Virus record (IMG/VR): IMGVR_UViG_2934470325_000001
Span: 32,001-96,000 of that record
Length of the DNA: 64,000 nucleotides
Direction: 5' to 3' (one strand)
Origin: a virus
Taxonomy: Duplodnaviria; Caudoviricetes
Shown: one piece after another, positions 1 to 37,698 of the stretch
Layout of the letters: the number at the start of each line of letters is the position of its first letter
Numbering within the stretch: position 1 is the stretch's first letter
Translations under genes and position numbers: made by a program
Notes under the pieces: generated by a model
What the model saw: the letters and a program-made list of their open reading frames with translations, nothing else
Told to the model about the DNA's origin: nothing
The model's database searches: none

Positions 1-2
1 CC

Positions 3-125
3 GCCCTCATGTGGGCGCTCGCCGCCGGCTGCGCCGTCTCCGTGATCGCGCTGATCGTGCTGCTCACCCTCACCGCCCGGGAGGGCCGCCGCTGGACCTA
101 CCCCACCGACCCCGACCAGCCGTGA
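3..125 (+). CDS. 3' end of a small membrane protein (partial)
   Basis: Frame reads ALMWALAAGCAVSVIALIVLLTLTAREGRRWTYPTDPDQP*; hydrophobic helix; not in the ORF track. Confidence 0.5.
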   Translation, partial: ALMWALAAGCAVSVIALIVLLTLTAREGRRWTYPTDPDQP

Positions 126-170
126 CCAGCGGAAACGCCCCCAACCCTGCGATGCGCGGAGGAAGCGAAG

Positions 171-293
171 ATGCCCAAGAAGACCCGGCACCCGGTCACC
201 GGCCTCCGCCTCATCCGGCGTATCTGCACCATCGCCGCCGTGGCGTGGCTGGCCGTTTTCGCCCTCGGCTTCTGCGCGGCGGTGACGTCGTGA
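171..293 (+). CDS. 40-aa membrane peptide
   Basis: GGAGGAAG RBS before ATG 171; MPKKTRHPVTGLRLIRRICTIAAVAWLAVFALGFCAAVTS*; stop overlaps next GTG (GTGA). Confidence 0.65.
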   Translation: MPKKTRHPVTGLRLIRRICTIAAVAWLAVFALGFCAAVTS

Positions 294-799
294 CCGTCAC
301 TGACAGTCGACGTAAGCCGGCCCCGTACCCGCGCCCCGACACCGCCCCGAATGTCACGGAGCGTGTAGCTGAAACCTGCAATGCAGCACCCATGGTGCCC
401 CCCGTTGAGCGCGAAACCGCCCCCGGGAAGCCGTCAACCCTGCACTCTGCAATCACCTTCGGTAGCCGCATCGTGGAGGGGGTGCGCCGCTACTGGACGC
501 TACCGCCGCTGCTCACCGATCAGCCGCCCACCATCGACCAGATGACCGAATACGCCCGCCGCGCCTCCTACACCAGCAAGACCGGTGTGCGCCGCGCCTG
601 CGGTGTCACCTGGTGCTACCTGGCGGCCATCCCCAACACGGTCGCCGCCCGCGTGTGGTCGGCCCTGTGGGAGCGGCCCGGCCGCATCGCCCTCATCCTC
701 GCCGTCGTCAAGCTCCTCAGCTTCACCCAGCCGGTCGGCTGGACCGTCGACCACCTGCTCGTCCCGGCCACGCGCGCCGCGCTGTGGCTGTTCCTCTAA
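290..799 (+). CDS. Membrane protein, Spd-like position in transfer operon
   Basis: GTG 290 within ORF 11..799 coupled to upstream stop; hydrophobic C-terminal segments. Confidence 0.7.
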   Translation: MTVTDSRRKPAPYPRPDTAPNVTERVAETCNAAPMVPPVERETAPGKPSTLHSAITFGSRIVEGVRRYWTLPPLLTDQPPTIDQMTEYARRASYTSKTGVRRACGVTWCYLAAIPNTVAARVWSALWERPGRIALILAVVKLLSFTQPVGWTVDHLLVPATRAALWLFL

Positions 800-819
800 C
801 CGCCGGAAGGAGAACCACC

Positions 820-1287
820 ATGGCGCGAAACATCAAGAGCACCATCCGCCCCAAGGGCGTCAAAGCCCTCGCCTGGACGTCGTTCGGCACCGCCTTCGTC
901 GGCGGCCCCCTCGTCGCCGGCATGTTCGTCGGTGACGCCATCAACACCGTCCTGGAGGCCATCCCGTGGGGGTGGATCCCCCCGGCGGTGCTGTTCCTCC
1001 TCGCCGTCATCTTCGTTCGGGACCTCGTCGTGGACTGGGAGCCGAACCGGCAGGCCATCTGGAGTCTCCTGCTCGCCCCGTCCGTCGCCCGCGCTGTCCC
1101 CGGCGAGCTGGGCGACCGCATCGACGAGTGGACCAGCGCAGCCCTCAACGTGATCTCCGGGCCGCTGCGGGAGTGGCTGGGCACCGGCTCCCCGATCGCC
1201 CTCGCCGTCGCCGTCGGCGGTGCGGCGATCCTGTTGGCGCAGCGGTCCATCAAGGCCAGCGGCGGCCAGCACGCGATGGGCATGTGA
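820..1287 (+). CDS. Multi-pass membrane protein
   Basis: AAGGAGA RBS, ATG 820; about four hydrophobic helices. Confidence 0.8.
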   Translation: MARNIKSTIRPKGVKALAWTSFGTAFVGGPLVAGMFVGDAINTVLEAIPWGWIPPAVLFLLAVIFVRDLVVDWEPNRQAIWSLLLAPSVARAVPGELGDRIDEWTSAALNVISGPLREWLGTGSPIALAVAVGGAAILLAQRSIKASGGQHAMGM

Positions 1288-1288
1288 C

Positions 1289-2677
1289 GTGGAACCGATC
1301 ACCGTCATGATCCTCGCCGCGCTCATCACGAAGGTGGTGACGACGCACCGGGAGGACATGGAGTACGCCCGCCACGGCCAAGAGTCACCCCGCTACAAGA
1401 TGAAGCTGGCGAAGCTCGCAGCCGCCCAGAAGGCAGGCGGGGCCGGCGGTAGGGCACCGGTCAAGCCCGGGGCGTCCGGCTACATGCAGGAGTTGTGGCG
1501 TGACGCGTGGGACGACCTCACCGAGCACCGCCGCCGGCAGAGGGAAACCCGCAACGCCGGCAAAAGGCAGCAGCATGAGGAGTCGCTGCGGGACTGGTCG
1601 AAGCGCAGCCTCAACACCCGCCCCGACGGACGACCGGTCGACGACATGATCGACGTGGCCGGCGTGCGACCCGGCAAGGCCGAGAAGGGCGGGCGGATCC
1701 CGCAGCCCCCTACACCCGAACCGTCGGCGGACGTCGTCCACGACGCCGAATGGCCGCCACCCGCCGACCCCGACGACGCGGGCGGGTTTCGCCGCGACAA
1801 GCGGCTCGTCGCCTGCGGCCACTGCGGCACCTCCGTCTCCGCCGGCTACCGGCGCACCCGCACCGTCAACGGCGACAGGCGGAAGGTGTGCGCCCCCTGC
1901 GCCGAACGCATCGACCACGGCGACCTGACCGTGCCAGCCGGCATCACGCAGCACAGCGACATCGGCTGCTCCGTGTGCGGGCAGCACCGCGACGACCCGT
2001 GGTGCGAGCATCGGAAGGCCGCCTACCAGCGGTTGCAGGAAGCCGTGCAAGGCGCGCTCAACGCCGAGAAGAACCCGCCCGCCGACGACGCCCCCGACAA
2101 GTGCAACCGCTGCCCCTACGGGCGGATCACCGGCACCCGACCGTGGCCCGGATCCGACGGGTCCAGCCCCGACGCCGACCAACTGTGCAACCGCTGCGGG
2201 TGGCTGTCCTCCCACATGTCCGGCAAGACGTGGGACCAGTGGAGCGCCGAACTGAACCAGACCGCCAACCCCTCACCGTGGCCTCCGCCGCAGCCCGACC
2301 CGAAACCCGCCGACCCCATCGACGTCGACCCCACCCCCAACAACGTGATTCCCCTGTTCCCCAACGCGAAGGAGACCGTCATGACCGCCAACGCTGAGGC
2401 CACCGGCCTTCCCACCGCCATCGCCTACGCCGAGGCCGCCGCGCAGGCCCACGACGCGTTCGCCACCGCAGGCAGTGAGGGCTACACCAGTGCCCTCGCC
2501 AGCTTCGAGGTCGGCTCGGAAGGGCTCGACTCCGCCCGCGCGGCGCAGGAGGCGTCCACCAACGCCGCCGCCGCGTGGCGGGTCCACCACGAGACGCTCG
2601 TCAAGCAGATGGCCGGGCGAGAGTTCTACCAGTCCAACCCGGACGCCGGCAACAAGGCGTTCCTGTCCGGCGAGTAA
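1289..2677 (+). CDS. Membrane-anchored protein with several CxxC Zn-finger motifs and an Ala-rich helical C-terminal domain
   Basis: GTG 1289 just after upstream stop; N-terminal hydrophobic stretch; CGHC/CAPC, CSVC, CNRC/CNRC; in-frame ATG 2381 with its own AAGGAGA RBS. Confidence 0.75.
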   Translation: MEPITVMILAALITKVVTTHREDMEYARHGQESPRYKMKLAKLAAAQKAGGAGGRAPVKPGASGYMQELWRDAWDDLTEHRRRQRETRNAGKRQQHEESLRDWSKRSLNTRPDGRPVDDMIDVAGVRPGKAEKGGRIPQPPTPEPSADVVHDAEWPPPADPDDAGGFRRDKRLVACGHCGTSVSAGYRRTRTVNGDRRKVCAPCAERIDHGDLTVPAGITQHSDIGCSVCGQHRDDPWCEHRKAAYQRLQEAVQGALNAEKNPPADDAPDKCNRCPYGRITGTRPWPGSDGSSPDADQLCNRCGWLSSHMSGKTWDQWSAELNQTANPSPWPPPQPDPKPADPIDVDPTPNNVIPLFPNAKETVMTANAEATGLPTAIAYAEAAAQAHDAFATAGSEGYTSALASFEVGSEGLDSARAAQEASTNAAAAWRVHHETLVKQMAGREFYQSNPDAGNKAFLSGE

Positions 2678-2760
2678 CCCCGGCTCCCGCCGTGCAGCGC
2701 AGGCCCTCCCGTGGTCTGCGCCGTGCGGTGGAAGCCGGGACACCCCGAAGGAGAACCAAC

Positions 2761-4773
2761 ATGATCGACGTTGCTGAGGTGTCCGCAGACGGCACCACCA
2801 CCGCCAGTAAGCCGGCCACCCCGCCGCCGGCACGCGACCTCACCCTGAAAGGCATACGCCGGGCCCGCCGCACCCCCCACGTCGCGGTCGGCCTCCTCGT
2901 CGTCTCCGCCGCCGCCACCAGCACCCTCGCCCACTACACCGGCGAGGAAGCGCAGGTAGCCGCCTGGACGGCCGTGGTCGCATTCGTCGCCGCCGTCGTG
3001 GTCGCCACGCAAGCCCGCCGCCGTGTCTTCGACAAGAAGGCCGTCCGCCGCGCCTACGCGTTCTGCGCGGTCGCTGTCGTGTGGTTGACCACCGTCACCG
3101 CGACCAGCCTCACCCTCGGCGCAGTCGGCATCCTCACCGCCGTCGGCTACAGCCTCGCCGTGCACTGGTGGCGCACCAACCCCCTACCCATCACCGGTGC
3201 CAGCACGACGTCCAGCAGCCTGTACGCCGACCTGTGGGCCGAGAACGTCGGATGCTCCGACGGTGCCCTACCCGGCACCACCCTCACCGACCCGCATGGC
3301 ATCAAAGCCGGCGTGCGGTACGCGCTGCGTCTGCGCCCCGGCAAGCAAACCCTCGACATGGTGATGGCGGCAGTCGGGAAGATTCGGGGCGGTCTGTTCC
3401 TGCGCCGCGACCAGGAACTCATCGTGGAACCCCACCCCACCCTCCCCGAACCGCACCTGCTCCTCACCGTCGTCACCCGCTCCCCGATCCGCGAATCCGT
3501 CGTCCACCCCGGCGCGTCCGCGTTCGATCCGGCCACCGGCCGTGTCGCCCTCGGCCCGTTCGCCGACGGTGAAGGCGTCGCCACATGGAAGGCGTACTCC
3601 GACAACCGGCTGTGGGGTGGTTTCATCCAGGGCGGCACCGGGTCCGGCAAGTCCCGCATGGTCGAATCCATCGCCCTCGCCCTCGCGGCGTCCACCACCC
3701 ACCCCACCGTCATCCTGTACGGCGACGGTCAGGGCGGCGCATCGTCGCCGCTGCTCATGAACCACGCCGACGTGAAAGCCCGCACCCACGACCAGATCCT
3801 CGCCGTCCTCGAAGGGCTGCACCTGGTGGTGCTGCTGCGGCAGGACGAAAACGCGGTCAACGGCGCGGAAGGGTTCACGCCCACCGAAGACCGGCCCGGC
3901 CTGCTGTTCGTCCTCGACGAATGCCACAAGCCGCTGTCGAAGCTGGAGAACCCCGCCAACTGGGAACGCATCCAATACCTGATCGCCACGATCGCCCGGG
4001 AAGGCGGCAAGGTCGGTGTGGCGGCGCTGCTGGCCTCCCAGCAGACCACCCTCGACGTGTTCGGCGGGGCGGGCAGCCCCAACGCTGAGGCGATCCGCAC
4101 GAACCTCCTCGCCGGCAACGGCGTCATGCTCCGCTCCAAAGACCCCAACGCCAAGACAATCTTCGGTGTGGAAGTCAACCCGAAGAAGTTCCCGCCGCTC
4201 GCCGGCTACGGCTTCCTCGTCGACTCCGACCCGTCCGCACGGTCCGCACCGTTTCGGGGCTACTACGTGACCGACCGGATCCGCGACGAGTGGCCCGGCC
4301 AGATCGTGTGGCGGTCCCTCGACCCGGGTGCCGCTGCCGCGTGGGGCCGCGACTACGAGCGCCGCGACGAGATCGCCGCCGAAGCGTTGGAGGCTGTCCG
4401 CCGCCGGCTCGCCGCACGCCGCGCAGGCCAGCACGCCACCCCCGCCCCCACCAAGCCGGCCAACGGCGATGTCGGCACCGGCCCCGTCGCCCCCTCGACT
4501 GGCCGGTTTCCATCGTGGAAGACGATGCTGGCCGCCGCCCAGCAGCAGGCCCAGCAAACGCAGAAGGCGAAGCCGCTGCACGACGGGCATCGGCGGGTCC
4601 TCGCCGCCATCCACGACGGGCACACCACCCCGAAAACCATCGTCGCCGCCACCGACTATTCGGAGCGGCAGGTGTACAACCTGCTCAACGACCTTGCCGA
4701 CAACCACGGCCTAATCCGTAAGCAGGGCCACGGACAGTATGTGCTCACCGACGGACGGCAGGTGGCTGCCTGA
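2761..4773 (+). CDS. traB: TraB-like FtsK/SpoIIIE-family DNA translocase
   Basis: GAAGGAGA RBS, ATG 2761; about four N-terminal TM helices; Walker A GGTGSGKS; Walker B LLFVLDECH; ASQ motif; C-terminal winged helix (TTPKTIVAATDYSERQVYNLLNDL...GQY). Confidence 0.8.
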   Translation: MIDVAEVSADGTTTASKPATPPPARDLTLKGIRRARRTPHVAVGLLVVSAAATSTLAHYTGEEAQVAAWTAVVAFVAAVVVATQARRRVFDKKAVRRAYAFCAVAVVWLTTVTATSLTLGAVGILTAVGYSLAVHWWRTNPLPITGASTTSSSLYADLWAENVGCSDGALPGTTLTDPHGIKAGVRYALRLRPGKQTLDMVMAAVGKIRGGLFLRRDQELIVEPHPTLPEPHLLLTVVTRSPIRESVVHPGASAFDPATGRVALGPFADGEGVATWKAYSDNRLWGGFIQGGTGSGKSRMVESIALALAASTTHPTVILYGDGQGGASSPLLMNHADVKARTHDQILAVLEGLHLVVLLRQDENAVNGAEGFTPTEDRPGLLFVLDECHKPLSKLENPANWERIQYLIATIAREGGKVGVAALLASQQTTLDVFGGAGSPNAEAIRTNLLAGNGVMLRSKDPNAKTIFGVEVNPKKFPPLAGYGFLVDSDPSARSAPFRGYYVTDRIRDEWPGQIVWRSLDPGAAAAWGRDYERRDEIAAEALEAVRRRLAARRAGQHATPAPTKPANGDVGTGPVAPSTGRFPSWKTMLAAAQQQAQQTQKAKPLHDGHRRVLAAIHDGHTTPKTIVAATDYSERQVYNLLNDLADNHGLIRKQGHGQYVLTDGRQVAA

Positions 4774-5498
4774 TGTCGACCCCGGTCCGCCGGATCCCAG
4801 GCCCGCGCCGCCCTACCAACCTCGCGCGACCAGGCCGCATCTACGTGATCCTCACCCGGCCCGTCGACCAGCAGGGTCAGGTGCTGCCCGGCCCGCCGAA
4901 GGTCGGCTACATCGGGCAGACCCGACAGCAGGTGTGGCAGCGCGCCGACCAGCACCTCGCCGAACAGCCATTCGGGGACCTGATCGTGGACGTGCTGCTA
5001 CTCGACCAAGGCACCTGGACGGACGCCCAGTTGGACGACCGGGAGGGGATGTGGATCCGCGCCGGTGTGTCCGTGGGTGGCAGGCCAGTCCAGCGGCCCC
5101 GCTACAACTATCTGTGCAACCTGGAGAACCCGGATCGGATCGAGATCTTCCGCGCCGTGCAGCACCGGCAGCACCGGGAGCCGGGCTGGCAGCCGCCGCC
5201 GAAGGGCGCGCGGATCCCCACCCAACGCAGGGCCGCGTCCACGGTCCGGCCGCGCCGGGTGTCGCCGCTGTCCCGCTGGTGGGGCCGCCACCGTTGGCAG
5301 GTGGTGTTGTGGGCGTCCGTGTGGGTGCTCCTGTTCGCGGGCGCGTGGTGGGCTGGCGCTGACACATGGTCCGGGTGGGCGGAGACCCGCAACGCTGCCG
5401 TAGCCGCCACCGTGGCCACCGCAGCCATCGGGTGGCGCAGGTGGAAGCTAGCCGGGACGAGACGCCGCCGGTCGAAGCGCCGGGGGCGTCGCCGGTGA
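4773..5498 (+). CDS. GIY-YIG-like nuclease domain with two C-terminal TM helices
   Basis: GRIYVI...VGYIGQT..QRADQH, E-x-x-W-I and P-R-Y-N elements of the GIY-YIG fold; hydrophobic C-terminus with Arg-rich tail; TGATG coupling to traB. Confidence 0.7.
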   Translation: MSTPVRRIPGPRRPTNLARPGRIYVILTRPVDQQGQVLPGPPKVGYIGQTRQQVWQRADQHLAEQPFGDLIVDVLLLDQGTWTDAQLDDREGMWIRAGVSVGGRPVQRPRYNYLCNLENPDRIEIFRAVQHRQHREPGWQPPPKGARIPTQRRAASTVRPRRVSPLSRWWGRHRWQVVLWASVWVLLFAGAWWAGADTWSGWAETRNAAVAATVATAAIGWRRWKLAGTRRRRSKRRGRRR

Positions 5499-5737
5499 AA
5501 TGGTGCTGGGAGGCATACGACAGGGCCGGTGTCCGCCGCATCGCCGGCACCCTCACCGACCCGTGGGCCGACACCCCGAGCGGGGCAGCCGAGCTGGGCA
5601 TGGCGCACCTGATGGTGAAGGTCCGGCCGGAGTTTCGGCGGCTGCGCGGGTGGCGTGTGCGCGCGTGGGATGACCTGGTGGGGGAGGCGTGGGTGGACGC
5701 CGATGAATGGTTGCACGCTCACACCGCAGGCAGGTAG
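5495..5737 (+). CDS. Small Trp-rich hypothetical protein
   Basis: GTGA overlap with upstream stop; VKWCWEAYDRAG... Confidence 0.65.
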   Translation: MKWCWEAYDRAGVRRIAGTLTDPWADTPSGAAELGMAHLMVKVRPEFRRLRGWRVRAWDDLVGEAWVDADEWLHAHTAGR

Positions 5738-5795
5738 ACGCGACGAAGCGGCCCCGCCCTCCACGATGGGGGAGCGGGGCCGCTTTGCGTCTACC
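5733..5795. terminator. Bidirectional intrinsic terminator between convergent genes
   Basis: GGTAGACGC..AAGCGGCCCCGC / GCGGGGCCGCTT..GCGTCTACC inverted repeat. Confidence 0.85.
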
Positions 5796-5797
5796 AG

Positions 5798-6997
5798 TCA
5801 GCCTGCCCGTGCGGCCAACTCCCGCACCATGCCGCGCCCACGCTCCACGACCGGCACCGCATCCACCACCCGCGCTGTCGTGAACCGCACCAGCTCGTTG
5901 TGGTGGGCCGCCGGCAGTGCGTCGAGCACGTCCCCGGCGTACTTGATCCCGCCCGACACATCCCCGCCCCGCACCATCCCGGCAGCCCTGTGCAACTGCA
6001 CCTGCGACCGCAACCGAATCTGCCGCTCCGGATACAACGCCATCGCCCGATCCTGCGCCGCCTCAGCCTCCCGCAGCCGGCCCGCGTGCGTGAACACCCA
6101 CGAGCGGGTGTGCTCCGTCCGCACCTCAGACCACCCCCACAACGATGTGCCGTCCGGGGTGCCCTCCGGCAACCGGTCAGCCATGCCCGTCAGCCGGTTG
6201 ACCGCCCCCACCGCCTCGGCGTGCCGGCCCGCCAGCGACAGCGCTTGTGCCTGCCCGGCCAGCAGTTGACAGCCGGCCACCGACGGGGCACCCACCGGCG
6301 GCAGACCATCCACCGACGCCGGCAAAGCTGCGACGGTCCGCCCGTCATAGCACCCGTTGACGGTGTCCCACGCCCTGACCCACCGCTGCACACCAGCATC
6401 CGCAGACAGGTCAGCCATGTTCCGCGCAGATGCCCACCATCTGCGGGCCGACACCTGCTCACCCGCAGACACCATCTCCAGAGCGACCAGCGTCGACAGC
6501 AGCCCGGCCACACCCAGCAGCCGCTGACGGTGCTGCCCGTCCGTGGCCGCGATCTGATGCCCGAGCACGTCCAGGTCAGCGCGCAGGCTCGCCATCAGCC
6601 TGTCGGCCGGCAGCCGGTAGTAGTCCACGCCGTATCCGGCGACGATGCTCGTCCACTCGTCGATGTCCGCCGCCGCGCCCAGGCCGTGCCGTAGCGCCTC
6701 CCACCCCGTCAGCCGGTCCACTGCCGGGACCGCCGCCAGCGCCCCCATGGCTTGCAAAACTCTGCGTCTGCGCATGTCTGTGTCGCCTGCCCGTCTACTC
6801 GCGTACGCCCCTGTCAGCGCCCCACCCGCCTCAAGCGCATTGTCGTATGCGGCAACGACTTCTGTCGATGCGGGCCGGTTGCCTCGCTCGACCTGACCGA
6901 GGTACCCGAAGTCGTAGCCGATCCGCTCGCCGAACTTCCGCAACGACCAGCCCGCCTGCGTGCGATGCCGCCTCAGTATGTGTCCGAAATCGTCCAT
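5798..6997 (-). CDS. XRE-family HTH regulator with helical (TPR-like) C-terminal domain
   Basis: FGHILRRHRTQAGWSLRKFGERIGYDFGYLGQVERGNR is an XRE HTH; GGGGGA RBS before ATG 6997. Confidence 0.85.
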   Translation of the reverse strand: MDDFGHILRRHRTQAGWSLRKFGERIGYDFGYLGQVERGNRPASTEVVAAYDNALEAGGALTGAYASRRAGDTDMRRRRVLQAMGALAAVPAVDRLTGWEALRHGLGAAADIDEWTSIVAGYGVDYYRLPADRLMASLRADLDVLGHQIAATDGQHRQRLLGVAGLLSTLVALEMVSAGEQVSARRWWASARNMADLSADAGVQRWVRAWDTVNGCYDGRTVAALPASVDGLPPVGAPSVAGCQLLAGQAQALSLAGRHAEAVGAVNRLTGMADRLPEGTPDGTSLWGWSEVRTEHTRSWVFTHAGRLREAEAAQDRAMALYPERQIRLRSQVQLHRAAGMVRGGDVSGGIKYAGDVLDALPAAHHNELVRFTTARVVDAVPVVERGRGMVRELAARAG

Positions 6998-7274
6998 GCT
7001 GTCCCCCCAGCGTGTGGGCAGTTCCGTGGGCCCACTGCTCACCCCTGCCGCACCCCGATTCTATCGATCAGGCTGGACGTGTCGGGACAAGCCCCCGACG
7101 CGTAGAGGCGCGGTAGACCGCAGGCCAGAGGCCGTTGTCTGCCGCTGCCGACGCATGGTGTGGTGGCCGACCGGGACCCCCAGCCCCCAAGGCCACCACA
7201 CCCCAGAATGTCGGGGGTGACCGGTGGGATACGGACAGTCAGGCAACACGCCCCGCGACCGTTTCGAGGACCCG

Positions 7275-7391
7275 ATGCCCGAGCCAGCCGACCCCGCCGA
7301 GGGCGAGCACCTGGACGACGCCCACCCGTTCGCCGCCGGGGTGTCCGGCCGTAGGCCCCGCAACCGCAGCAACCGGTGGCGGCAGCGGTGA
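7275..7391 (+). CDS. 38-aa hypothetical peptide
   Basis: GAGGA RBS, ATG 7275, MPEPADPAEGEHLDDAHPFAAG...; GTGA overlap with next gene. Confidence 0.4.
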   Translation: MPEPADPAEGEHLDDAHPFAAGVSGRRPRNRSNRWRQR

Positions 7392-7600
7392 GCATCAGCA
7401 AGCCCGACCCAGCAGTCATCGCCGGCTGGTGGGAGAGGTATCACGCCCATGCGCTACGCGATGGGCGCTGCCCCGTCTGCGACGTGCCGCGACGCTGCCG
7501 AGAGTGGGCCAACGCTCGCGGCGACCTGATCGCCCACGGGCTGCTCGCGGCCGACGGCGGACCCGTCGAGACGGGCGATGGGGAAGCGCCCCGCACCTGA
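7388..7600 (+). CDS. Small His/Cys metal-binding protein divergent from the XRE regulator
   Basis: H-x-H..GRCPVC..C motif; followed by a hairpin. Confidence 0.65.
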   Translation: MSISKPDPAVIAGWWERYHAHALRDGRCPVCDVPRRCREWANARGDLIAHGLLAADGGPVETGDGEAPRT

Positions 7601-7612
7601 CCTCGGGCATGC

Positions 7613-7652
7613 GAAAACGCCCCCGCCGGCCGAAGCCATGGCGGGGGCGTTC
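7613..7652. terminator. Hairpin terminator between convergent genes
   Basis: AACGCCCCCGCC...GGCGGGGGCGTT inverted repeat. Confidence 0.75.
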
Positions 7653-7678
7653 CTGTGTGGGGTCAGGAATGCGCGTTC

Positions 7679-7951
7679 CTAGTCGCTCGGTTCCGTCGCC
7701 TTGGTCTTGGTGCCGCCGGTGATCCCTCGGGCGATCTGGGAGGCGCGGGCCGGGTGCAGTTGGAGTAGTTCGCCGACCTGGTCCCAGGTGCGGCCCTCTT
7801 TGAGGGTGGTGACGGCTTCTGCGCGCGCGGCCCGCAGGTCGCTTTGGAGGGTGGGGATCGCGGCGAGGGCTGCGCCGAGGGCGATGGCGCGTTCTGCGGG
7901 GTCGTCGGGGAGGCCGTTGTGGAGGGCGGCGATGGCGGGCGGGAGTTTCAT
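7679..7951 (-). CDS. Small HTH DNA-binding protein (probable repressor of the adjacent divergent promoter)
   Basis: GRTWDQVGELLQLHPARASQIARG HTH; TAACCT -10 six nt upstream of ATG (leaderless). Confidence 0.8.
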   Translation of the reverse strand: MKLPPAIAALHNGLPDDPAERAIALGAALAAIPTLQSDLRAARAEAVTTLKEGRTWDQVGELLQLHPARASQIARGITGGTKTKATEPSD

Positions 7952-7957
7952 GGGCTC

Positions 7958-8027
7958 AGGTTAGTGGGTGCCCCTCGACTTCTCTAGTGGGCACCCCCTT
8001 GCGCCGTTAGTGGGTACCCACTATGCT
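7958..8027. promoter_or_regulatory. Divergent promoters with three operator repeats at 23-bp period
   Basis: TAGTGGGTGCCCCT (7962), TAGTGGGCACCCCCT (7985), perfect palindrome TAGTGGGTACCCACTA (8008-8023); + strand TTGCGC(7999)-17bp-TATGCT(8022). Confidence 0.85.
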
Positions 8028-8062
8028 TTAGGTGTAGGCAGGAACGAGCAGGGGAGACGGAC

Positions 8063-8362
8063 ATGGCGAACACGGTGACCATCGAGCGGCTGACCATCGA
8101 CGACATCACCAGCCGGATCCGCCGCGCCTACGGGGTGCACACCACCCAGACCTACCGGGGTGCGTGGATGAGCCTGAGCAACCTGGCCGAGCGCGTCGAC
8201 CTCACCTTCAACGAGATCAAGGCCGGCGTCCTCCACCTCGCCCAGACCGACCGCCAGTGCGTGATCGCCCCCGAGAGCAACCAGCGCACCCTCACCGGCC
8301 TGGACCGCGAGCTGGCGGTGCGGTACGGCGGCCAGGACAACCACCTCATCTGCTGGAGCTAG
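8063..8362 (+). CDS. Hypothetical protein, possible winged-helix fold
   Basis: GGGGAGA RBS; WMSLSNLAERVDLTFNEIKAGVLHL helix pattern; strong GC3 bias. Confidence 0.8.
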   Translation: MANTVTIERLTIDDITSRIRRAYGVHTTQTYRGAWMSLSNLAERVDLTFNEIKAGVLHLAQTDRQCVIAPESNQRTLTGLDRELAVRYGGQDNHLICWS

Positions 8363-8433
8363 CCGCCCCGGGGTCGGCCACCCGGCCGACCCCCGCCCTA
8401 CCCTCTGACCAGCCCACGACACCGGAGGACACC

Positions 8434-8757
8434 ATGACCAACACTGCCGCGCAGACCGACGCCCTCTACCGCGCCGCCATCGCCACCGACGCCGCCATCG
8501 CCGGCCCGCACTGCACCATCGACGTGTACGAGCTGGAGGTCACCGGCCACAGCGACGACGGCCCGGTCTACGAGCTGAGCGACCGCACCGCCATGGACAC
8601 GGCCGCCACCAGCGTGCGCACCGACGACCCCGACCGGGCCGCCGCCGCCCAGGACGAGGCCGACGAGATCCTGCGGGCCGCAGGCTGGGTCCGGGTGGAG
8701 GACTGGGACGCCGGCGACGGCGGCCTGTACGCCGACGTGGAGCCGGCCAACGGCTGA
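8434..8757 (+). CDS. Very acidic small hypothetical protein
   Basis: GGAGGA RBS, ATG 8434; 23 D/E versus 6 R and no K in 107 aa. Confidence 0.8.
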   Translation: MTNTAAQTDALYRAAIATDAAIAGPHCTIDVYELEVTGHSDDGPVYELSDRTAMDTAATSVRTDDPDRAAAAQDEADEILRAAGWVRVEDWDAGDGGLYADVEPANG

Positions 8758-8769
8758 CGCCGGACGCAG

Positions 8770-8805
8770 AGCAGCCCCGCTCCCACGAGGGGAGCGGGGC
8801 TGCTT
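8770..8805 (+). terminator. Intrinsic terminator
   Basis: AGCAGCCCCGCTCCC / GGGAGCGGGGCTGCT followed by T. Confidence 0.85.
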
Positions 8806-8831
8806 GCTGTGCGGCGATCGTTCACTAAGCC

Positions 8832-8872
8832 GTGTAGACACATCTACACATCACGTGTAGACTCATCTACAT
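8832..8872 (+). promoter_or_regulatory. Leaderless promoter overlapped by two palindromic operators
   Basis: GTGTAGACACATCTACAC (8832-8849) and GTGTAGACTCATCTACAT (8855-8872); -35 TAGACA(8835)-17bp--10 TAGACT(8858); ATG 7 nt downstream. Confidence 0.85.
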
Positions 8873-9209
8873 GAGCGAGCGGCAGATCACCCGGGACATC
8901 GCCCGATACAGCGACACCGACGAGCCGATGCACCGGTGGGCCCTCACCATCGACGGCGACACCGTCTCCGAGCTGTGGGTGGCTATCGAGACCGGCGAGA
9001 TCATGCAGGTCGAAACCCCCGCCGAGCACCAGGGCAACGGCTACGCCACCGCCCTCTACCGGCAGGCCGCCGCCGAGATCACCATCTACCACGCCCCCGA
9101 AGCCCACCGCACCTACGAGGGTGACCGCTTCGCCCGTTCCGTCGGCGGCGACTCCCTGCCCTGCCAGCACGGCTGCTGCGACAACGACAACGACGACGAG
9201 GAGTTCTGA
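8871..9209 (+). CDS. Small GNAT-family acetyltransferase with Cys/acidic tail
   Basis: Acetyl-CoA motif A: VETPAEHQGNGYATALY; ends CQHGCCDNDNDDEEF. Confidence 0.75.
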   Translation: MSERQITRDIARYSDTDEPMHRWALTIDGDTVSELWVAIETGEIMQVETPAEHQGNGYATALYRQAAAEITIYHAPEAHRTYEGDRFARSVGGDSLPCQHGCCDNDNDDEEF

Positions 9210-9568
9210 TGGCCACCGACGACCTGATGGCCTGGGCCGGCCCCGCCTGGGCCGAACTGACCGACGAGCAGCGCGACCAGCTCGCTGCCGCCGCCGCCGA
9301 CATTACCCAGCGGTACCCCGACCCCGACGACCAGGGCGACCGCGACGCCGCCTTGTCGGCCACCGTGCAGTACCTGCTCGGCGAGACCACCGCCGACGAC
9401 ACTGCCCGCGCCCTGCTCGCCGCCCGGCAGGCCGCCCGCGCCGCCTACGTGGCCGCCGTGCAGCACGCCGTGATGCTCCACCGAGTCGGCGGCAGCCAGA
9501 AGAAGGCCGCCGCCCTCGCCTGCGGCATCGACCGGATGACCCTCCTCAAAGCCCTGGGCGAGCGGTGA
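9209..9568 (+). CDS. Helical protein with C-terminal HTH (probable autoregulator)
   Basis: SQKKAAALACGIDRMTLLKALG HTH; TGATG coupling. Confidence 0.75.
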   Translation: MATDDLMAWAGPAWAELTDEQRDQLAAAAADITQRYPDPDDQGDRDAALSATVQYLLGETTADDTARALLAARQAARAAYVAAVQHAVMLHRVGGSQKKAAALACGIDRMTLLKALGER

Positions 9569-10341
9569 GTCAGGACGAGTGGCTGCGCCGCCTACGCCGC
9601 GCCGGAACGGCAGTCACCGCAGCCAGCGCGGCCAGCGACGAAGCGTTCGCGCACCTCGACGCCACGGTCCGCGCTGCACGCCAGGCAGGGCGTACCGTGG
9701 CGCACCTGGTGACCGTGACGGGCCTGAGCAAAGCTCGAATCGACGAGGCCATCGCGGCCGGCGGCCCCGAGGACGACCTGCCAAGCAGCGACACCGCCCT
9801 GCGGATCGCCGCATACACCGCCGCCGCCGCAGACGCCAACTACCTTGCCTGCCGTGGCCGCCGAGACGCGCTCATGCTCCAAGCTGGCATGGAAGGGCTG
9901 ACGTACTCGGCGATCGCCGCTGCGGCGGGCACCTCCCGCCGGTACGAGTGGCAGCTACGCACCGGCCGCCTCGACATCGACAGGCGGTCGCCACGGCAGT
10001 CCGTGTTCGAAGGGGCCGGCATGGAGGCATATCGGGCCACCGAAAACGCGCGGCTGCGATCCCGCAGGCAAGCGGTAGAAGCCGGGCTGCCGGTGCAGAT
10101 CACGCACGGACTGTACGGCTACCGCCACGGATGCCGGTGCGACGTGTGCGTGGAGGCGCGGCGCGGCGTCCAGGCGGGCGACGTGGCCGTCAGCCACGGG
10201 CTCGACGGCTACCGCCACGGCTGCCGATGTGAGGTGTGCACGGCCAAGAACGCCAGCTACCACCGTGACTGGCGTCGCCGCCGGTCAAGCACAGTGCGCG
10301 TACTCCCGCCGCAGAGAGGGGAACCGCGATGGGAGGGGTAG
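9565..10341 (+). CDS. Double-HTH protein with two HG-x-x-GYRHGCRC-x-x-C Zn-binding repeats
   Basis: GTG 9565 overlapping upstream stop; GRTVAHLVTVTGLSKARI and GLTYSAIAAAAGTSRR; HGLYGYRHGCRCDVC and HGLDGYRHGCRCEVC. Confidence 0.7.
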   Translation: MSQDEWLRRLRRAGTAVTAASAASDEAFAHLDATVRAARQAGRTVAHLVTVTGLSKARIDEAIAAGGPEDDLPSSDTALRIAAYTAAAADANYLACRGRRDALMLQAGMEGLTYSAIAAAAGTSRRYEWQLRTGRLDIDRRSPRQSVFEGAGMEAYRATENARLRSRRQAVEAGLPVQITHGLYGYRHGCRCDVCVEARRGVQAGDVAVSHGLDGYRHGCRCEVCTAKNASYHRDWRRRRSSTVRVLPPQRGEPRWEG

Positions 10342-10778
10342 CCACCCTAGAGCATGGGCAGCAGGAGTACGCCTGGATGCTCAACGCGATCCGGGCCGAC
10401 GCGTGGCTGGTGGGGCGCATGTGGGTGGACGCCGAATCCACCCCTGACGAGCTGGACCAGCCCGGCACGGTGTGGTCGGTCGTCCTGGTCGACGGTGCCC
10501 CGGCGGCGTGGTGTGCGGCCACCCCCGACGCGGGCGCACTCCGGGCGCACTCCAACTACGAGCACCCCCGGCATCGGGGGCGCGGCCTGTACGCGGCGGC
10601 GTACGCGCAGAGGCACCGCGACGTGATCCGCACGTCAGGGGTGCCAGCGGTGACGTACCTCTTCGCGCAGCCGATCCCGTTGCACGAGGCGGACGGCTGG
10701 CACCGCACCAGTGCCCAGGGGCCGGGTGAGGTGGACGGCCACTGGTGGTGGGAACTGCGCCGCATCCCCACGGATTGA
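10329..10778 (+). CDS. Second GNAT-family acetyltransferase
   Basis: NYEHPRHRGRGLYAAAY motif A; LHEADGW motif B-like. Confidence 0.7.
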   Translation: MGGVATLEHGQQEYAWMLNAIRADAWLVGRMWVDAESTPDELDQPGTVWSVVLVDGAPAAWCAATPDAGALRAHSNYEHPRHRGRGLYAAAYAQRHRDVIRTSGVPAVTYLFAQPIPLHEADGWHRTSAQGPGEVDGHWWWELRRIPTD

Positions 10779-10880
10779 CAGCCGGGAACACGCTTTCCCG
10801 TCCGCCTGGTGTTCGGCCCAAGGTGGGCCGCTGTCGCCTCTCGGACAGCCCCACCCCGACCCGGCCGCTACCGTGCCCGG

Positions 10881-11339
10881 ATGATCCGCCGCACCCTCCC
10901 CGCCGCCCTCGCCCTCACCGCCGCCCTCACCGGCTGCGGCAGCAACCCCGAACCAGCCGCCGCACCGCCACCCACAAAAAGCGCAGCACCCCTCCCGCTC
11001 CTCATCCGAGGCACCTTCAGCCTGGAACTCCCCAAGTTCATCTGGTCCGAGGAAACGCACACCTGCGCAGGCATGGGCGGATACGACGACATTGCAGGCG
11101 GAACCCAAGTCCTCGTCACCGACCCGGCAGGAGTGAACCTCGCCGTCGGGGCACTCGACGACGGCCAGCCCGTCATCGACCCCGACGACGACAGCCGCGC
11201 CACCTCCTGCCTCTTCGAATTCGAAGTCCCGAATGTGCCCAGCGGTAAGGGCATCTACGGGATAGAGGTGGGCCGTCGGGGCAAGGTCCAATACAAGGAG
11301 GCCGACCTGGGGGAGAAGCTCAGCCTCAGCCTCGGCTGA
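10881..11339 (+). CDS. Lipoprotein (moron; superinfection-exclusion-like position)
   Basis: Signal peptide MIRRTLPAALALTAALTG|C with lipobox LTGC; TACCGT -10 six nt upstream of ATG. Confidence 0.8.
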   Translation: MIRRTLPAALALTAALTGCGSNPEPAAAPPPTKSAAPLPLLIRGTFSLELPKFIWSEETHTCAGMGGYDDIAGGTQVLVTDPAGVNLAVGALDDGQPVIDPDDDSRATSCLFEFEVPNVPSGKGIYGIEVGRRGKVQYKEADLGEKLSLSLG

Positions 11340-11488
11340 TCCCGTCACGGCAGGCATGCGAAAGGGGGCCGCCCCACCCCCCGCCGGCTGCCCGCGTGGC
11401 GGCGAGGCAGCGACAGACAGGGATGGGGCGGCCCTGGGCAACACCGGCGCTGGGGAGCTAGACCGGGGCCCGTCCGTGATGCTGAGGA

Positions 11489-11989
11489 TCAGGCAGCCGC
11501 GTCGGGGCGCTGGTCTGCCGGCGAGTGGCAAAACGGGAACGGCTCGACCAACGGAACAGTGCGCACGGTCCGCTCCACGCCGTAGAAGCCGCTGCGGGCG
11601 ATGACGGAGTTACCGTCGTCGTCGCACACGACCACCTCGATGGTGAGCTGCCCGTCGTCGATCTCGAAGCCCGCACCGGTGGGAACATCGTGCGGGTCGA
11701 GGCCGTTCGCGCGGACCCACTCGCACAGCATCTCTTGCCCCGGACCGCTGAGGGCCGGAAGACGCCCCGCCGTGACCACGCCCGAGTGATCCATGCGGGC
11801 GATCGAGGATTGCAGGAAGTCGCGCTCCGTCCGGTTACGCACCGCCTCCGCCGCGCCAGTCCACGCCTGCTGGATGGTGTCGCCGAGGTCATCCCACACC
11901 GGCATCGGGTCGCCCCGATAGTTCTTGAACCCGACCGCCTCGCCGTACGCCTGATAGGCGACCTGGGCCAGCTCAACGCTGTCGGTCAC
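11489..11989 (-). CDS. Two-domain hypothetical phage protein at end of the late operon
   Basis: GTG 11989 adjacent to holin stop; AQVAYQAYGEAVGFKNYRGDPMPVWDDL; C-half resembles 42032..42340. Confidence 0.7.
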   Translation of the reverse strand: MTDSVELAQVAYQAYGEAVGFKNYRGDPMPVWDDLGDTIQQAWTGAAEAVRNRTERDFLQSSIARMDHSGVVTAGRLPALSGPGQEMLCEWVRANGLDPHDVPTGAGFEIDDGQLTIEVVVCDDDGNSVIARSGFYGVERTVRTVPLVEPFPFCHSPADQRPDAAA

Positions 11990-11990
11990 C

Positions 11991-12359
11991 TCAGGCCGTC
12001 CGCTCGGCGGCACCAGCCGGCTTGTCCTTCACGCCGGCTTCCTGCGCCGCATCCGACACGCCCGTCGGCTTGAACAGCCCGAAGTGCACCGCCACGGCGA
12101 TGCCGAAGTTGATGAGGGTGGAGTACACCACCGGGATCCACTCGAACACCGCCGACGTGTTCTCCGCCTGCAACCACGCCGACAGGATCGAGTTGACCGC
12201 CGACAGGGTCAGCAGCAGCACCGCCTTCACGCCAGGACTGGTGGAGCGGCGGGTGACGAGGCCGACGAGGATCGGCAAGAGGATGGTGATGGCCAGGGAC
12301 AGCAGCCCGCCAAGGTTGGGGGCGAAGCCGTACACGGGCAGTGCGGGGATGTCGCTCAT
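11991..12359 (-). CDS. Holin-like membrane protein
   Basis: GGAGGGG RBS; three TM helices, polar C-tail; within lysis cassette. Confidence 0.75.
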   Translation of the reverse strand: MSDIPALPVYGFAPNLGGLLSLAITILLPILVGLVTRRSTSPGVKAVLLLTLSAVNSILSAWLQAENTSAVFEWIPVVYSTLINFGIAVAVHFGLFKPTGVSDAAQEAGVKDKPAGAAERTA

Positions 12360-12436
12360 GTGACCCCTCCAGGGGTGATCTTGAAGGGCCTACCCGACAT
12401 GAGGGCAGGCAGAAGGAAACGCCTACGATCGGCGTT

Positions 12437-12790
12437 GTGGCAGGCCAACCGCAGGTACGCGAGTCAGCGTGGCTGCACGCGCCCGCAAACCCGTACGTGC
12501 CGCTCGCCCACATGCGGCTAGAGGAACGCATGGATGGCACGGGGTGGGACCTGTACGTGTCCGACCCGGCCTCCGCCCCCAGTCAGCACGTGTGCTGGCC
12601 CGACGAGGACGGGGCACGCGGTGAGATGGAGCGGCTCTACACCGCCGGGCGGGCAGACGGCGAATGGCGCATCACACAGACCGGCCGTTCACCGCAGGCG
12701 GCGACGGACGCCCCACCAGCCGACGCAACGCATGAATATCCGGCTCCGGCCGCCACACCTCCGCCTGCACCGACGTCAACGTGTCCGTGA
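12437..12790 (+). CDS. Antisense small hypothetical gene inserted in the lysis cassette
   Basis: TACGAT -10 seven nt upstream of GTG 12437; fills a 310-bp gap; protein-like sequence (GWDLYVSD...WPDEDGARGEMERL); 3' end overlaps the opposite-strand gene. Confidence 0.5.
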   Translation: MAGQPQVRESAWLHAPANPYVPLAHMRLEERMDGTGWDLYVSDPASAPSQHVCWPDEDGARGEMERLYTAGRADGEWRITQTGRSPQAATDAPPADATHEYPAPAATPPPAPTSTCP

Positions 12791-13121
12791 ACCGGCCAAC
12801 CTCCCTGGTCATCCGCTTCAAGCGGTCCTCCAGCTCGGTGATCTGCGCCCGCAGCCGGGCCACATCCGCGTCAGCCTCATCGCGGATCCGCTCAGCCCGA
12901 TCCTCCGACTCCCGCGCTTCTTTGCGGGCGGCCTGCTCACTGGCCTGCAACTGGGTCGCCCACTGCAACATCGCGTCCCTACGCGACGCCCTACCGGCAA
13001 CCCGGTTGGTGATGGCGCTGACGACGATCGCCGCAGCAGCCGAGATCAAACCGACGATGACGGTGGTCGCATCCAACCCTGACGAGGCGGCAGCGAACAT
13101 CAGTCCGTAGGTGGGGTCCAT
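12672..13121 (-). CDS. Membrane-anchored coiled-coil protein (lysis cassette)
   Basis: AAAGGA RBS, ATG 13121; one TM helix followed by heptad-rich segment. Confidence 0.75.
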   Translation of the reverse strand: MDPTYGLMFAAASSGLDATTVIVGLISAAAAIVVSAITNRVAGRASRRDAMLQWATQLQASEQAARKEARESEDRAERIRDEADADVARLRAQITELEDRLKRMTREVGRFTDTLTSVQAEVWRPEPDIHALRRLVGRPSPPAVNGRSV

Positions 13122-13531
13122 GCTGGTTGTCCTTTGCTGGTGACCGGCTCTGGCCAGCCCGCGATCAACCACACACACATCGCGAACGCACCCCACACCG
13201 CCGCCGACACCCAGCCATCCGGCACGTTGCCGAGGACCCAGCCGGACAGGTACAGGGAGAACCAGAGGACTTTGATTCCGATGGCCGCGCCGAACGCCAA
13301 CCTGTCGCAGTCCCGCACCGACCCCAGGGTGCAGGCGACAGCGATGGCGATCCACAGAGCAGCCCACGGCCACAACGGCATGATGCCGTGCAGCCAGGCG
13401 TAAAACGGCTGGGCGTCGGGCTGGGCGGTGGCGAGACGCAGCCCGTAGGCGACGTCGAGGCCGGCGAACACCAGTAGGGCTATGCCTCGCCGGCCGACCC
13501 GGTGCTGCAACCGTGCGACCGCCCTACCCAT
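13100..13531 (-). CDS. Four-TM membrane protein (lysis cassette)
   Basis: Four hydrophobic helices; TGATG-coupled to endolysin. Confidence 0.8.
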   Translation of the reverse strand: MGRAVARLQHRVGRRGIALLVFAGLDVAYGLRLATAQPDAQPFYAWLHGIMPLWPWAALWIAIAVACTLGSVRDCDRLAFGAAIGIKVLWFSLYLSGWVLGNVPDGWVSAAVWGAFAMCVWLIAGWPEPVTSKGQPAWTPPTD

Positions 13532-14472
13532 CAGGACATGCTGCCGTCGGAGACGCGGCCGGTGAACGTGAACGTCGCCGGCAGTTCCAGACGTCCCGCC
13601 GGCCCCTGCGGACCGGGGTCACCCTTCGGCCCCTGCGGACCCGCCGGACCCTGAGGTCCCTGCGGGCCGGCAGGACCGGGCTGGCCAGCACCGCCGTACC
13701 GCTTCGCCATGCACATCTGGAGTTGCACGTAGCCCCACGCATCGAACTTGTCGCCGGAGGTGGCGGTGCTGCCGACCGACTTGCGCATCCGCAGCACCGC
13801 CGCCGACGTGCCCGACCCGTAGACGCCATCCTCATCGCCGGCCTTGAAACCGAGATAGTTGAGGGCGACCTGGAGGGCCTGCACGTGCATGCCCTTGTCG
13901 CCGACCTGGCAGAACATCAGGAGTCCCCCTGTCGAAGTCGTCAACCCGATGTACGCCAGGTAGCGGCGGAACACCGGGGTCAGATCAGTGCCGGCCTTCG
14001 TGACATCCCGGAACACGCTGGCGTGCGTGTGGGACAGGTGCGAGGTGTCGCCGCTCGACCGACGCTTAAGCCGATCCCAGCGTTTGACCGTCACCCCGTC
14101 GGGCGAGTAGATGACCTCGCGGATCCACAAGGTGTCCGGAGCATTCGCCTCACACTCACCGACCAGCCACACGCTGAACGTGCGCAAGTTGTGCGTCCGC
14201 CCGTTGACGGTGACGCTGAACCAGCCGACGTCCAGGGCCGACGCGTAGTCGCTCAGCCCGGCCTTGTCCCGCGACGACTCGACCACCGAGTAGTCGCTGG
14301 TCACCACCCGGTCCTCGCCGCAGTGGTAGCCGCCCCGGTGGGCGCTGTCGGCGACGATACCGACCTCGTTCGGTTCGAGGTCCGCCGAGCGGGCCACACC
14401 CGGATCCATGTCCAGATGCGTGAGGAGCAGGGAACGGACCTGCATCAGGTTGGATGGTGCGCGGGTCACCAC
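13531..14472 (-). CDS. Endolysin: Zn-peptidase-like catalytic domain, peptidoglycan-binding domain, collagen-like tail
   Basis: GGYH...SALD...HLSHTHAS His/Asp pattern; GDKGMHVQALQVAL...DGVYGSGTSAAV PG-binding signature; position directly after tail genes. Confidence 0.8.
   Translation of the reverse strand: MVTRAPSNLMQVRSLLLTHLDMDPGVARSADLEPNEVGIVADSAHRGGYHCGEDRVVTSDYSVVESSRDKAGLSDYASALDVGWFSVTVNGRTHNLRTFSVWLVGECEANAPDTLWIREVIYSPDGVTVKRWDRLKRRSSGDTSHLSHTHASVFRDVTKAGTDLTPVFRRYLAYIGLTTSTGGLLMFCQVGDKGMHVQALQVALNYLGFKAGDEDGVYGSGTSAAVLRMRKSVGSTATSGDKFDAWGYVQLQMCMAKRYGGAGQPGPAGPQGPQGPAGPQGPKGDPGPQGPAGRLELPATFTFTGRVSDGSMS
13594..13686 (-). repeat. Collagen-like (G-X-Y)x10 coding repeat in endolysin
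   Basis: GQPGPAGPQGPQGPAGPQGPKGDPGPQGPAG. Confidence 0.9.
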
Positions 14473-14494
14473 ATCACCTCCGTGGGGTTGCCGG

Positions 14495-15967: not shown

Positions 15968-15990
15968 TATGACTCCTCAAGGGGTGGTGG

Positions 15991-33692: not shown

Positions 33693-33697
33693 AGCCG

Positions 33698-35764: not shown

Positions 35765-35782
35765 GGCGACACCCCCGTCCAA

Positions 35783-37608: not shown

Positions 37609-37698
37609 ACGTCCTCACCTCCGCTCGGCGGGTTGCGGGCGGTGTTCCCGGCCCGGGGCCACCCGCATGTCCGGGCCGGGAACGTCTGTGGGTGTCGG

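Follow-up and report, generated by a model that had tools for sequence, protein, structure and literature searches.

A TraB/Tra-type translocase operon and a candidate clt repeat array apparently carried inside an integrated Micromonosporaceae prophage

INTRODUCTION

Why should an integrated phage carry an operon of membrane proteins built around a DNA pump of the kind that conjugative Streptomyces plasmids use? The question is raised by the left end of a 64,000-nucleotide stretch of the IMG/VR record IMGVR_UViG_2934470325_000001. This stretch, hereafter the window, covers bases 32001-96000 of the 108,622-bp record (labeled G000), so that window base 1 is contig base 32001; coordinates without further qualification are those of the window. 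The pumps in question, pIJ101 Tra and pSVH1 TraB, are single-protein conjugative translocases for double-stranded DNA (dsDNA) found on Streptomyces plasmids and integrative and conjugative elements of actinomycetes (AICEs). A sequence-only reading had proposed that bases 1-5795 are a TraB operon apparently carried by an intact prophage, possibly a hybrid of phage and AICE. Here, we describe the translocase, its operon, a repeat array at the head of that operon, and the phage genome around them, and we weigh what such a module may do.

RESULTS

The operon encodes a predicted TraB/Tra-type translocase

The operon and the gene convergent to it comprise the following features, as called by a script based on G+C at third codon positions (GC3), which gives approximate start positions.

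Contig 29940 onward, plus strand: g065, 548-aa membrane protein, first gene of the operon (gene call, sequence)
1-125, plus strand: 3' end of g066, small membrane protein with one hydrophobic segment; start at contig 31751 or at the ATG at 31832
392-799, plus strand: g068, 135 aa, one C-terminal hydrophobic segment; block gene 1 (tblastn)
820-1287, plus strand: g069, 155 aa, two hydrophobic segments; block gene 2 (tblastn, hydropathy)
1289-2677, plus strand: g070, 462 aa, N-terminal hydrophobic segment, several CxxC pairs; block gene 3
2761-4773, plus strand: g071, 670 aa, predicted TraB/Tra-type dsDNA translocase with a membrane anchor, an FtsK-like P-loop ATPase, and a winged helix-turn-helix (wHTH) domain; block gene 4
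4773-5498, plus strand: g072, 241 aa, C-terminal hydrophobic segment; outside the conserved block (gene call)
5798-7042, minus strand: NsdA-like regulator with HTH (XRE-type) and TPR domains, convergent to the operon (Pfam HTH_31, 2.3e-11; NCBIfam NsdA_fam_reg, 3e-13, below cut-off)

The architecture of g071 agrees with the earlier description of an ATPase with N-terminal membrane helices and a C-terminal winged helix. Hydrophobic segments were placed at residues 64-82 and 101-119 by a hydropathy scan, used in place of a dedicated transmembrane predictor. The Walker A (GGTGSGKS) and Walker B (VLDECH) motifs were invariant in 22 of 22 aligned homologues, and the wHTH corresponded to a Pfam HVO_A0261_N match at residues 610-664 (E = 0.00099, below cut-off). 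When a profile of these 22 homologues was aligned with pIJ101 Tra by hhalign, the two matched (97.1%, E = 5.9e-11) over 408 columns, with query residues 160-663 facing residues 202-643 of the 648 in Tra, from the start of the ATPase through the end of the wHTH. This alignment upholds the TraB identity first proposed. The corresponding pairwise BLASTP match was weak (E = 2e-4, identity of ∼25%).

Because the Pfam FtsK_SpoIIIE match of g071 stays below its cut-off, we assigned the family by profile and feature comparison. On this point, the membership in the FtsK/SpoIIIE family claimed earlier finds no backing in Pfam but agrees with both the profile and the Atlas comparison; the latter linked g071 to actinobacterial FtsK_SpoIIIE-plus-HTH clusters (scores of 0.96-0.98, TM values of 0.5-0.7, with the PF01580 structure rows reaching the bar). 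PHROGs gave an FtsK/SpoIIIE-like family over the P-loop only (1.9e-6), and NCBIfam gave weak EccC and HerA matches only. We regard the designation of g071 as a TraB/Tra-type protein, predicted by these comparisons, as sound. Its homologues number 161 at E <= 0.001, most of them from Micromonosporaceae and at 43-76% identity, and relatives occur in 105 actinomycete plasmids. Within the host family, the distribution is sporadic, with a relative in 11 of 151 sampled genomes. Single-sequence scans of loci for traB returned no match, whereas alignment-based scans did.

The translocase gene lies in a coupled operon of membrane-protein genes

Together with a further gene at 171-293, the plus-strand genes listed above form a run that occupies 1-5498 of the window. 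Every protein of the run has at least one hydrophobic segment (Kyte-Doolittle scan), and coupling is tight at two junctions, where the genes are 1 nt apart (1287/1289) or overlap by their start and stop codons (4773). The coupled operon of membrane proteins was therefore correctly recognized, but the extent given for it (1-5795) missed its start, which lies at contig 29940, 2,060 bp to the left of the window; window 392-5498 is its distal part.

Genes g068 to g071 form the conserved block. Relatives of g068 were found immediately upstream of a traB relative in 21 of 27 related loci (tblastn), and most related loci have partial relatives of g070; neither g068 nor g070 belongs to a family in Pfam, NCBIfam, or PHROG. 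By position and topology only, the small membrane proteins may be called Spd-like. In contrast to the block, g072 has a relative in a single related locus (L023). Its earlier label as a GIY-YIG protein could not be confirmed: Pfam gave no match even at E <= 0.5, and the nearest Atlas clusters, which are GIY-YIG, reached a score of 0.84 and a TM value of ∼0.3, the level of a lead only. A GIY-YIG-like N-terminal domain is possible on this weak lead.

Directly upstream of the operon are an O-like replication initiator gene (g061, ∼3 kb away), an XRE repressor-like gene, and an HTH_17 (Xis/MerR-like) gene. On the other side, the interval from 5.8 to 11.5 kb holds only the HTH-TPR regulator and small open reading frames (ORFs) without a family, with no integrase among them, as stated in the sequence-only reading, which had seen nothing beyond small accessory genes between operon and lysis genes. 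A promoter and terminator scan of 1-8000 found terminator-like sites at chance level, all on the minus strand, and both promoter-like sites were also on that strand.

A dense array of 8-bp repeats marks the head of the operon

No other short-repeat cluster in the record is as dense as the one that occupies the 3' third of g065 and the following 246 bp. The 8-mer CCGTCACC has 15 of its 28 forward record copies within the 0.9 kb of contig 30944-31864, an array that ends 136 bp to the left of window base 1. Past the g065 stop codon there are six copies, and the 7-mer core is found inverted five times in the 1.2 kb around the array. The 16-kb locus around the operon (L002) holds 17 copies against 2.07 expected, a count reached in 0 of 200 shuffles. 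Moreover, GTCACC encodes 12 of the 13 Val-Thr pairs in g065, whereas the other genes use it for 75 of 228, which shows constraint on the repeat at the level of the DNA.

A comparable arrangement was seen in the related elements. In 18 of 23 nonduplicate loci, the densest 8-mer cluster lay 0.6-4.3 kb upstream of traB, against 5.25 expected; none of 200,000 simulations reached 18, for an interval that was picked after seeing the data. The repeated word differs between elements. It spans two or three reading frames in L006, L011, L020, L027, and L030 and is also intergenic in L011 and L027. Only L023 has the same word as G000, and its TraB is also the most similar to that of G000 in the C-terminal 65 residues, at 56.2% against at most 54.1% elsewhere, which is a small margin. 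The literature on clt, the cis-acting transfer locus, describes direct 8-bp repeats that TraB recognizes. By this analogy, the CCGTCACC array is a candidate clt.

Across the window, CCGTCACC occurs 18 times against 8.9 expected, an excess of about twofold that was reached in 0 of 100 shuffles. In FtsK and SpoIIIE, the gamma wHTH domain recognizes 8-bp words, the FtsK-orienting polar sequences (KOPS) and the SpoIIIE recognition sequences (SRS), respectively. A KOPS-like polarity of the scattered CCGTCACC copies was considered and set aside, as their strand bias tracks the switch in GC skew. A different pattern was noted in the accessory arm of a relative, G007: six direct and five inverted copies of ATTGCCACC within 284 bp (L037, G007:92838-93121), an arrangement like that of iterons or of a partition site.

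The operon lies within an integrated temperate phage genome

The window and the right end of the record contain the following phage features.

11991-12359, minus strand: holin, at the end of the late region that faces the operon (PHROG holin families, 4.3e-19)
13531-37108, minus strand: lysis, tail, head, and packaging module (Pfam)
13531-14472, minus strand: peptidoglycan-binding protein (Pfam)
16942-18138, minus strand: Sipho_Gp37 tail protein (Pfam)
19118-23347, minus strand: tape measure protein, 1,409 aa, assigned by size and position, with no Pfam family
30939-31874, minus strand: capsid protein (Pfam)
32376-33707, minus strand: ClpP-type protease (Pfam)
33698-35782, minus strand: Mu-like portal protein (Pfam)
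35783-37108, minus strand: large terminase (Pfam)
48062-55432, minus strand: replication genes (Pfam)
48062-49426, minus strand: DnaB helicase (Pfam)
54293-55432, minus strand: DNA polymerase III beta clamp (Pfam)
Contig 107129-108622: large serine recombinase, cut by the right end of the record; the sole PF07508 match in G000

One unit thus holds the terminase, portal, protease, capsid, tape measure, tail, holin, replication genes, and integrase of a temperate phage; the replication genes beyond the terminase also include an exonuclease (Pfam). IMG/VR classes G000 as a provirus, with a CheckV completeness of 93%, and its G+C content is 66-72% along the whole record. G000 is an integrated large temperate siphophage of ∼110 kb from a Micromonosporaceae host. 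Extension of the sequence to both sides, which had been suggested as a check, found the serine integrase at the right end. PF00589 gave no tyrosine integrase match in G000, and a tRNA search of the whole record found none. An independent AICE was expected to show an integrase set of its own to the left; a PF00589/PF07508 search found no integrase within 30 kb to the left of the operon. Contigs of one DNA sequencing run were also compared with contig 1-16000. A single full-length identical contig ended 391 bp past the left end of the record, the other matches were chance pieces of 21-26 nt, and no attachment (att) junction was seen among them.

A traB relative was found in 12 IMG/VR records, and 4 of these 12 also have a close relative of the G000 portal. 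One, the metagenome relative G007, has identical 123-bp ends and closes into a unit of 112,440 bp. In it, the replication genes, terminase, portal, capsid, and holin all have relatives, and these are followed by a convergent traB with relatives of g068 and g069; it has its own serine recombinase, and the matches of g165 and g164 wrap across its ends. The gene order of G000 is also that of G006, a 105-kb provirus whose left arm has a tyrosine integrase gene at its far end. Holin relatives adjoin traB in G006, G007, and G004, and genes of the left arm up to 27 kb past the operon have homologues in the matching arms (g009 and g023 in G007, seven genes in G006). The operon is internal to the phage, with the same order in G007 and G006, as the original proposal of a prophage-borne operon had it. 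It is very probable that an integrating prophage, apparently complete, carries within its genome a TraB-type operon with a candidate clt; we consider an independent AICE next to it unlikely.

The block recurs beside tail and lysis genes in several prophage types

A search for TraB next to head and tail genes in other Micromonosporaceae had been recommended, and this synteny was found in several prophage types, where the g068-g071 block is convergent to tail/lysis genes. It adjoins a tape measure gene in L006, a tail protein gene in L013, tape measure matches in L007, L015, and L020, tail genes in L024, and an HK97 capsid and portal in G002. In several loci, the gap between traB and the first convergent gene is only ∼30-180 bp. 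The unrelated structural types that apparently carry the module are the ∼110-kb type with a Mu-like portal, a ∼40-kb HK97 type, and perhaps 17-kb mini-elements with capsid/portal genes.

Among the 15 genome loci, tail or head genes were found in 5 (L006, L007, L008, L013, and L015). L005 had only PHROG families of unknown function, L014 and L017 were too short to judge, and L016, L018, and L019 gave no structural-gene match in tblastn with G000 proteins, the one search run on them. Some structural gene was present in 10 of the 12 viral records, a set biased by its selection. The G000 terminase was tried as a phage marker in the 15 genomes and matched two Salinispora genomes only. In G017, the genome of L009, both terminase matches fall on a multimegabase contig, off the 26-kb scaffold of L009; in G022, the genome of L014, there is a terminase match that may or may not share a contig with L014. 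In a quick tree with a midpoint root, the G000 TraB grouped with those of other phage types, away from its own type.

Two of the viral records are small, L028 (G009, 17,404 bp) and L031 (G012, 17,382 bp), and are rated 100% and 94% complete. Each has a traB relative, and the block convergent to it encodes matches to major-head and portal families as well as a large phrog_5313 protein. In L028, an 8-mer array of 10 copies and a g061-like initiator are present too. Both records resemble mini phage-like or satellite-like elements equipped with a conjugation pump.

Other features of the phage genome

The sign of the GC skew flips at the boundary between terminase and early genes (36000-38000), where all genes stay on the minus strand. 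A 321-aa gene beside that for DnaB (50106-51071), with a weak match to a wHTH, contains a word of at least 10 bp repeated three times in tandem at a spacing of ∼27 bp (50604-50667, contig 82604-82667). These repeats may be a phage origin with iterons inside an initiator gene. In the left arm (L001), five copies of TGCCCCGTG lie in 137 bp at 12000-12136 of that locus, inside a 458-aa gene without a Pfam family. The left arm also carries cargo at contig 10421-11236, 16140-16784, and 24325-24924, with the families DUF6042 (4.8e-40), Pycsar-effector TM (0.0036, weak and below cut-off), and GmrSD_N (3.9e-15); part of this cargo may be defense related.

DISCUSSION

A possible second route of spread

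We propose that the phage carries a conjugation or spreading module of Streptomyces type, made up of g065 with its repeats, three to four small membrane proteins, and a TraB/Tra-type translocase. By analogy with pSVH1 TraB and pIJ101 Tra, the G000 TraB would form a membrane-anchored hexameric pump whose C-terminal wHTH binds the CCGTCACC array, which would act as clt. The pump would then pass the phage genome, as double-stranded DNA in an excised or replicating state, through hyphal contacts and septal cross-walls, with the cotranscribed membrane proteins in the role of Spd proteins, and the phage would gain a route of spread without virions. Array binding, pumping, and transfer are steps that we infer from these analogies; we lean toward movement of the phage genome between or within hyphae as the most likely function of the operon. 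More tentatively, the temperate phages of Micromonosporaceae could be a guild of "conjugative prophages," each equipped with a TraB pump, an 8-bp clt word of its own, and the membrane proteins that go with them, and with a second route independent of virions; we see this broader reading as possible and somewhat doubtful.

Several observations weigh against this proposal. The Pfam FtsK_SpoIIIE score of g071 is 16 bits against a cut-off of 24, and PDB sequence searches with it gave weak HerA and DUF87 matches only. TraB is usually flanked by spd membrane genes, as the sequence-only reading stated; here, g068 has no similarity to pIJ101 SpdB, and g069 has none to pIJ101 SpdB or KilB (probability of <=0.4%). 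No GntR-type TraR/KorA repressor was found among the scanned neighbors, where XRE-type HTH proteins occur instead. The array sits upstream, within a coding region at the head of the operon, and the G000 repeats mostly hold one reading frame, so that a peptide repeat may contribute to them there. The block is mobile between phages and nonphage elements and is not phage specific, since it is also present in loci without detected phage genes: none were found in L009-L012, of which L009 encodes a type IV secretion system coupling protein close by and L012 a tyrosine integrase at 1.7 kb downstream. As for the element itself, no left attachment site (attL) of G000, the other object of the extension, was found, and the boundary set by IMG/VR is a predicted one. 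The search of sequencing runs for the stretch listed no RNA run and only one DNA run, the likely source.

Alternative explanations

An FtsK-like pump might instead serve the intracellular cycle of the phage, clearing or segregating DNA at septa and into spores or resolving and moving replicating genomes, with the repeats as KOPS- or SRS-like orienting sites. The fold and the wHTH are common to the FtsK/SpoIIIE class, CCGTCACC stands at about twice the shuffle level across the window, and a Tra-like gene is also found in the Streptomyces phages of cluster BG, which are predicted to be virulent and so have no lysogeny to spread; for one of them, the authors suggested a role in replication. Yet an integrated prophage is passed on with the chromosome and has no need of a separate pump, the nearest characterized relative of g071 is a conjugation protein, most copies of the word stand in one dense local array rather than in a genome-wide polar spread, and the strand bias of the scattered copies follows local GC skew. 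We therefore judge an intracellular role unlikely. The operon could also be a moron of plasmid or AICE origin that is of use to the lysogen, through plasmid or phage exclusion or kil-type growth control, without moving the phage genome. Its place in an accessory arm with defense-like cargo (GmrSD_N, DUF6042, and the weak PycTM) would suit such an origin, as would its sporadic presence in the 11 of 151 sampled family genomes and the tree grouping with other phage types, which suggests exchange of modules. However, many elements keep the four-gene block together with an element-specific array at 45-76% identity, and exclusion alone needs neither, which makes the moron quite improbable.

The operon might belong to a separate integrated plasmid- or AICE-like element beside the prophage, fused to it by the provirus call, given that IMG/VR boundaries are predictions. 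The genes just upstream (the O-like initiator g061, the XRE repressor-like gene, and the HTH_17 gene) have a plasmid-like flavor, a g061 relative adjoins traB in a 17.4-kb record, and G006 has its tyrosine integrase at the far end of the left arm. Against a fusion, G007 closes with both modules in one 112.4-kb unit, G000 has no left integrase and its sole PF07508 match is at the right end, the left-arm genes past the operon are common to G006 and G007, and adjacency to tail/lysis genes recurs across phage types with gaps down to ∼30-180 bp. We consider a separate element very unlikely. Finally, the Pfam score under threshold might hint at a decaying remnant without present function; the reading frames are intact, however, the catalytic motifs are invariant in 22 homologues, and block and array are kept across diverged elements, which leaves decay as the least probable of these explanations, with hardly any weight.

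Meaning and novelty

If the phage genome does move between or within hyphae by means of this operon, an integrated phage would spread by mating as well as by infection, and the line between prophage and conjugative element would be blurred in mycelial bacteria. Such movement would explain how a prophage could reach hyphae that lack receptors or are resistant. If the guild existed, phage host range and spread would not be set by receptors alone. The element-specific 8-mer arrays and the diverged wHTH domains are a natural set for the study of how TraB-type pumps choose their DNA, and the proposal gives a concrete interpretation to the "FtsK-like" genes that isolated Streptomyces phages carry.

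A literature search that covered few subscription journals and no supplements found no description of TraB-type operons in integrated Micromonosporaceae prophages. The concept has precedents in pZL12 and the Streptomyces cluster BG phages. What is new is the integrative lifestyle, the distinct subfamily, the conserved position of the module in several phage types, and the arrays embedded in coding sequence.

Comparison with known systems

The module shares with pIJ101 Tra and pSVH1 TraB an anchor, an FtsK-like ATPase, and a wHTH colinear with those of pIJ101 Tra, a short direct-repeat array near the gene, and presumed cotranscription with small membrane proteins. It differs in that the G000 array is upstream inside the first operon gene (in pWTY27, clt is at or past the 3' end of tra), in its identity of ∼25%, in membrane proteins that are not SpdB/KilB-like, in the lack of a GntR-type TraR, and in its host replicon, a 110-kb phage. 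AICEs, as defined by Ghinet et al., are compact, att-bounded sets of Int, Rep (RepSA, RepAM, or Prim-Pol), and Tra. In contrast, the sole G000 integrase is encoded at the opposite end of the phage, ∼70 kb away, the initiator is O-like, and the 108.6-kb record has full phage modules. The term "phage-AICE hybrid" used in the sequence-only reading was thus not sustained, as the AICE-type integrase/RepSA set is absent and only the O-like initiator stands 3 kb upstream.

FtsK and SpoIIIE likewise join a P-loop pump to a wHTH, but the G000 repeats form one dense local array on a mobile element and not a genome-wide polar set. In phiC31 and VWB, SpdB2 homologues have been suggested to help phage DNA spread in the mycelium; these phages are reported to have SpdB2 only, whereas G000 has a translocase and a candidate clt.

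In the pZL12 type, phage genes and tra stand together on one replicon. In published descriptions, pZL12/phiZL12 combines genes for phage heads and tails with a tra locus that conjugal transfer requires, pSLE1 and PhiNon1 are its relatives, and ParA, ParB, and replication as a plasmid are reported for pSLE1 and pZL12. Circular Streptomyces plasmids of ∼88-93 kb encode terminases with 55-56% identity to that of G000, and the g071 profile matched in 2 of the 3 such plasmids checked, plasmids that may be related to pZL12. Unlike the pZL12 type, G000, G006, and G007 have integrases and gave no match to ParA or ParB (PF13614 and PF02195), and host family and TraB subfamily differ. On a Nocardiopsis plasmid, a NUDIX hydrolase gene stands just downstream of a traB relative, and in the Streptomyces phage YDN12 (49520-56528, L051), a MutT/NUDIX hydrolase gene stands a few genes upstream of the Tra-like gene; these neighbors presumably resemble the Pif protein of pSAM2.

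A search with pIJ101 Tra matched 260 phage records, of which 22 were Streptomyces phages, and the best phage matches were full length, at 43-46% identity over ∼80% of the query. Full-length relatives were found in Streptomyces phages of cluster BG (Woodruffvirus: YDN12, TP1604, Xkcd426, and Geonosis), where the gene is labeled "FtsK-like DNA translocase"; Geonosis is predicted to be virulent, and the published interpretation of the gene goes no further than possible use "during replication." The BG proteins represent a different subfamily, because tblastn with the G000 protein misses the BG phages; neither with the G000 TraB nor with that of a mini-element did tblastn match any isolated phage, and the Micromonosporaceae subfamily has so far been seen only in proviruses, metagenome records, and plasmids. 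Still, YDN12 gp70 (686 aa), the last gene product of its genome, aligned with the g071 profile through the wHTH (95.3%). As in G000, its gene follows small membrane proteins, and the cluster BG phages show that virion genomes can carry such genes.

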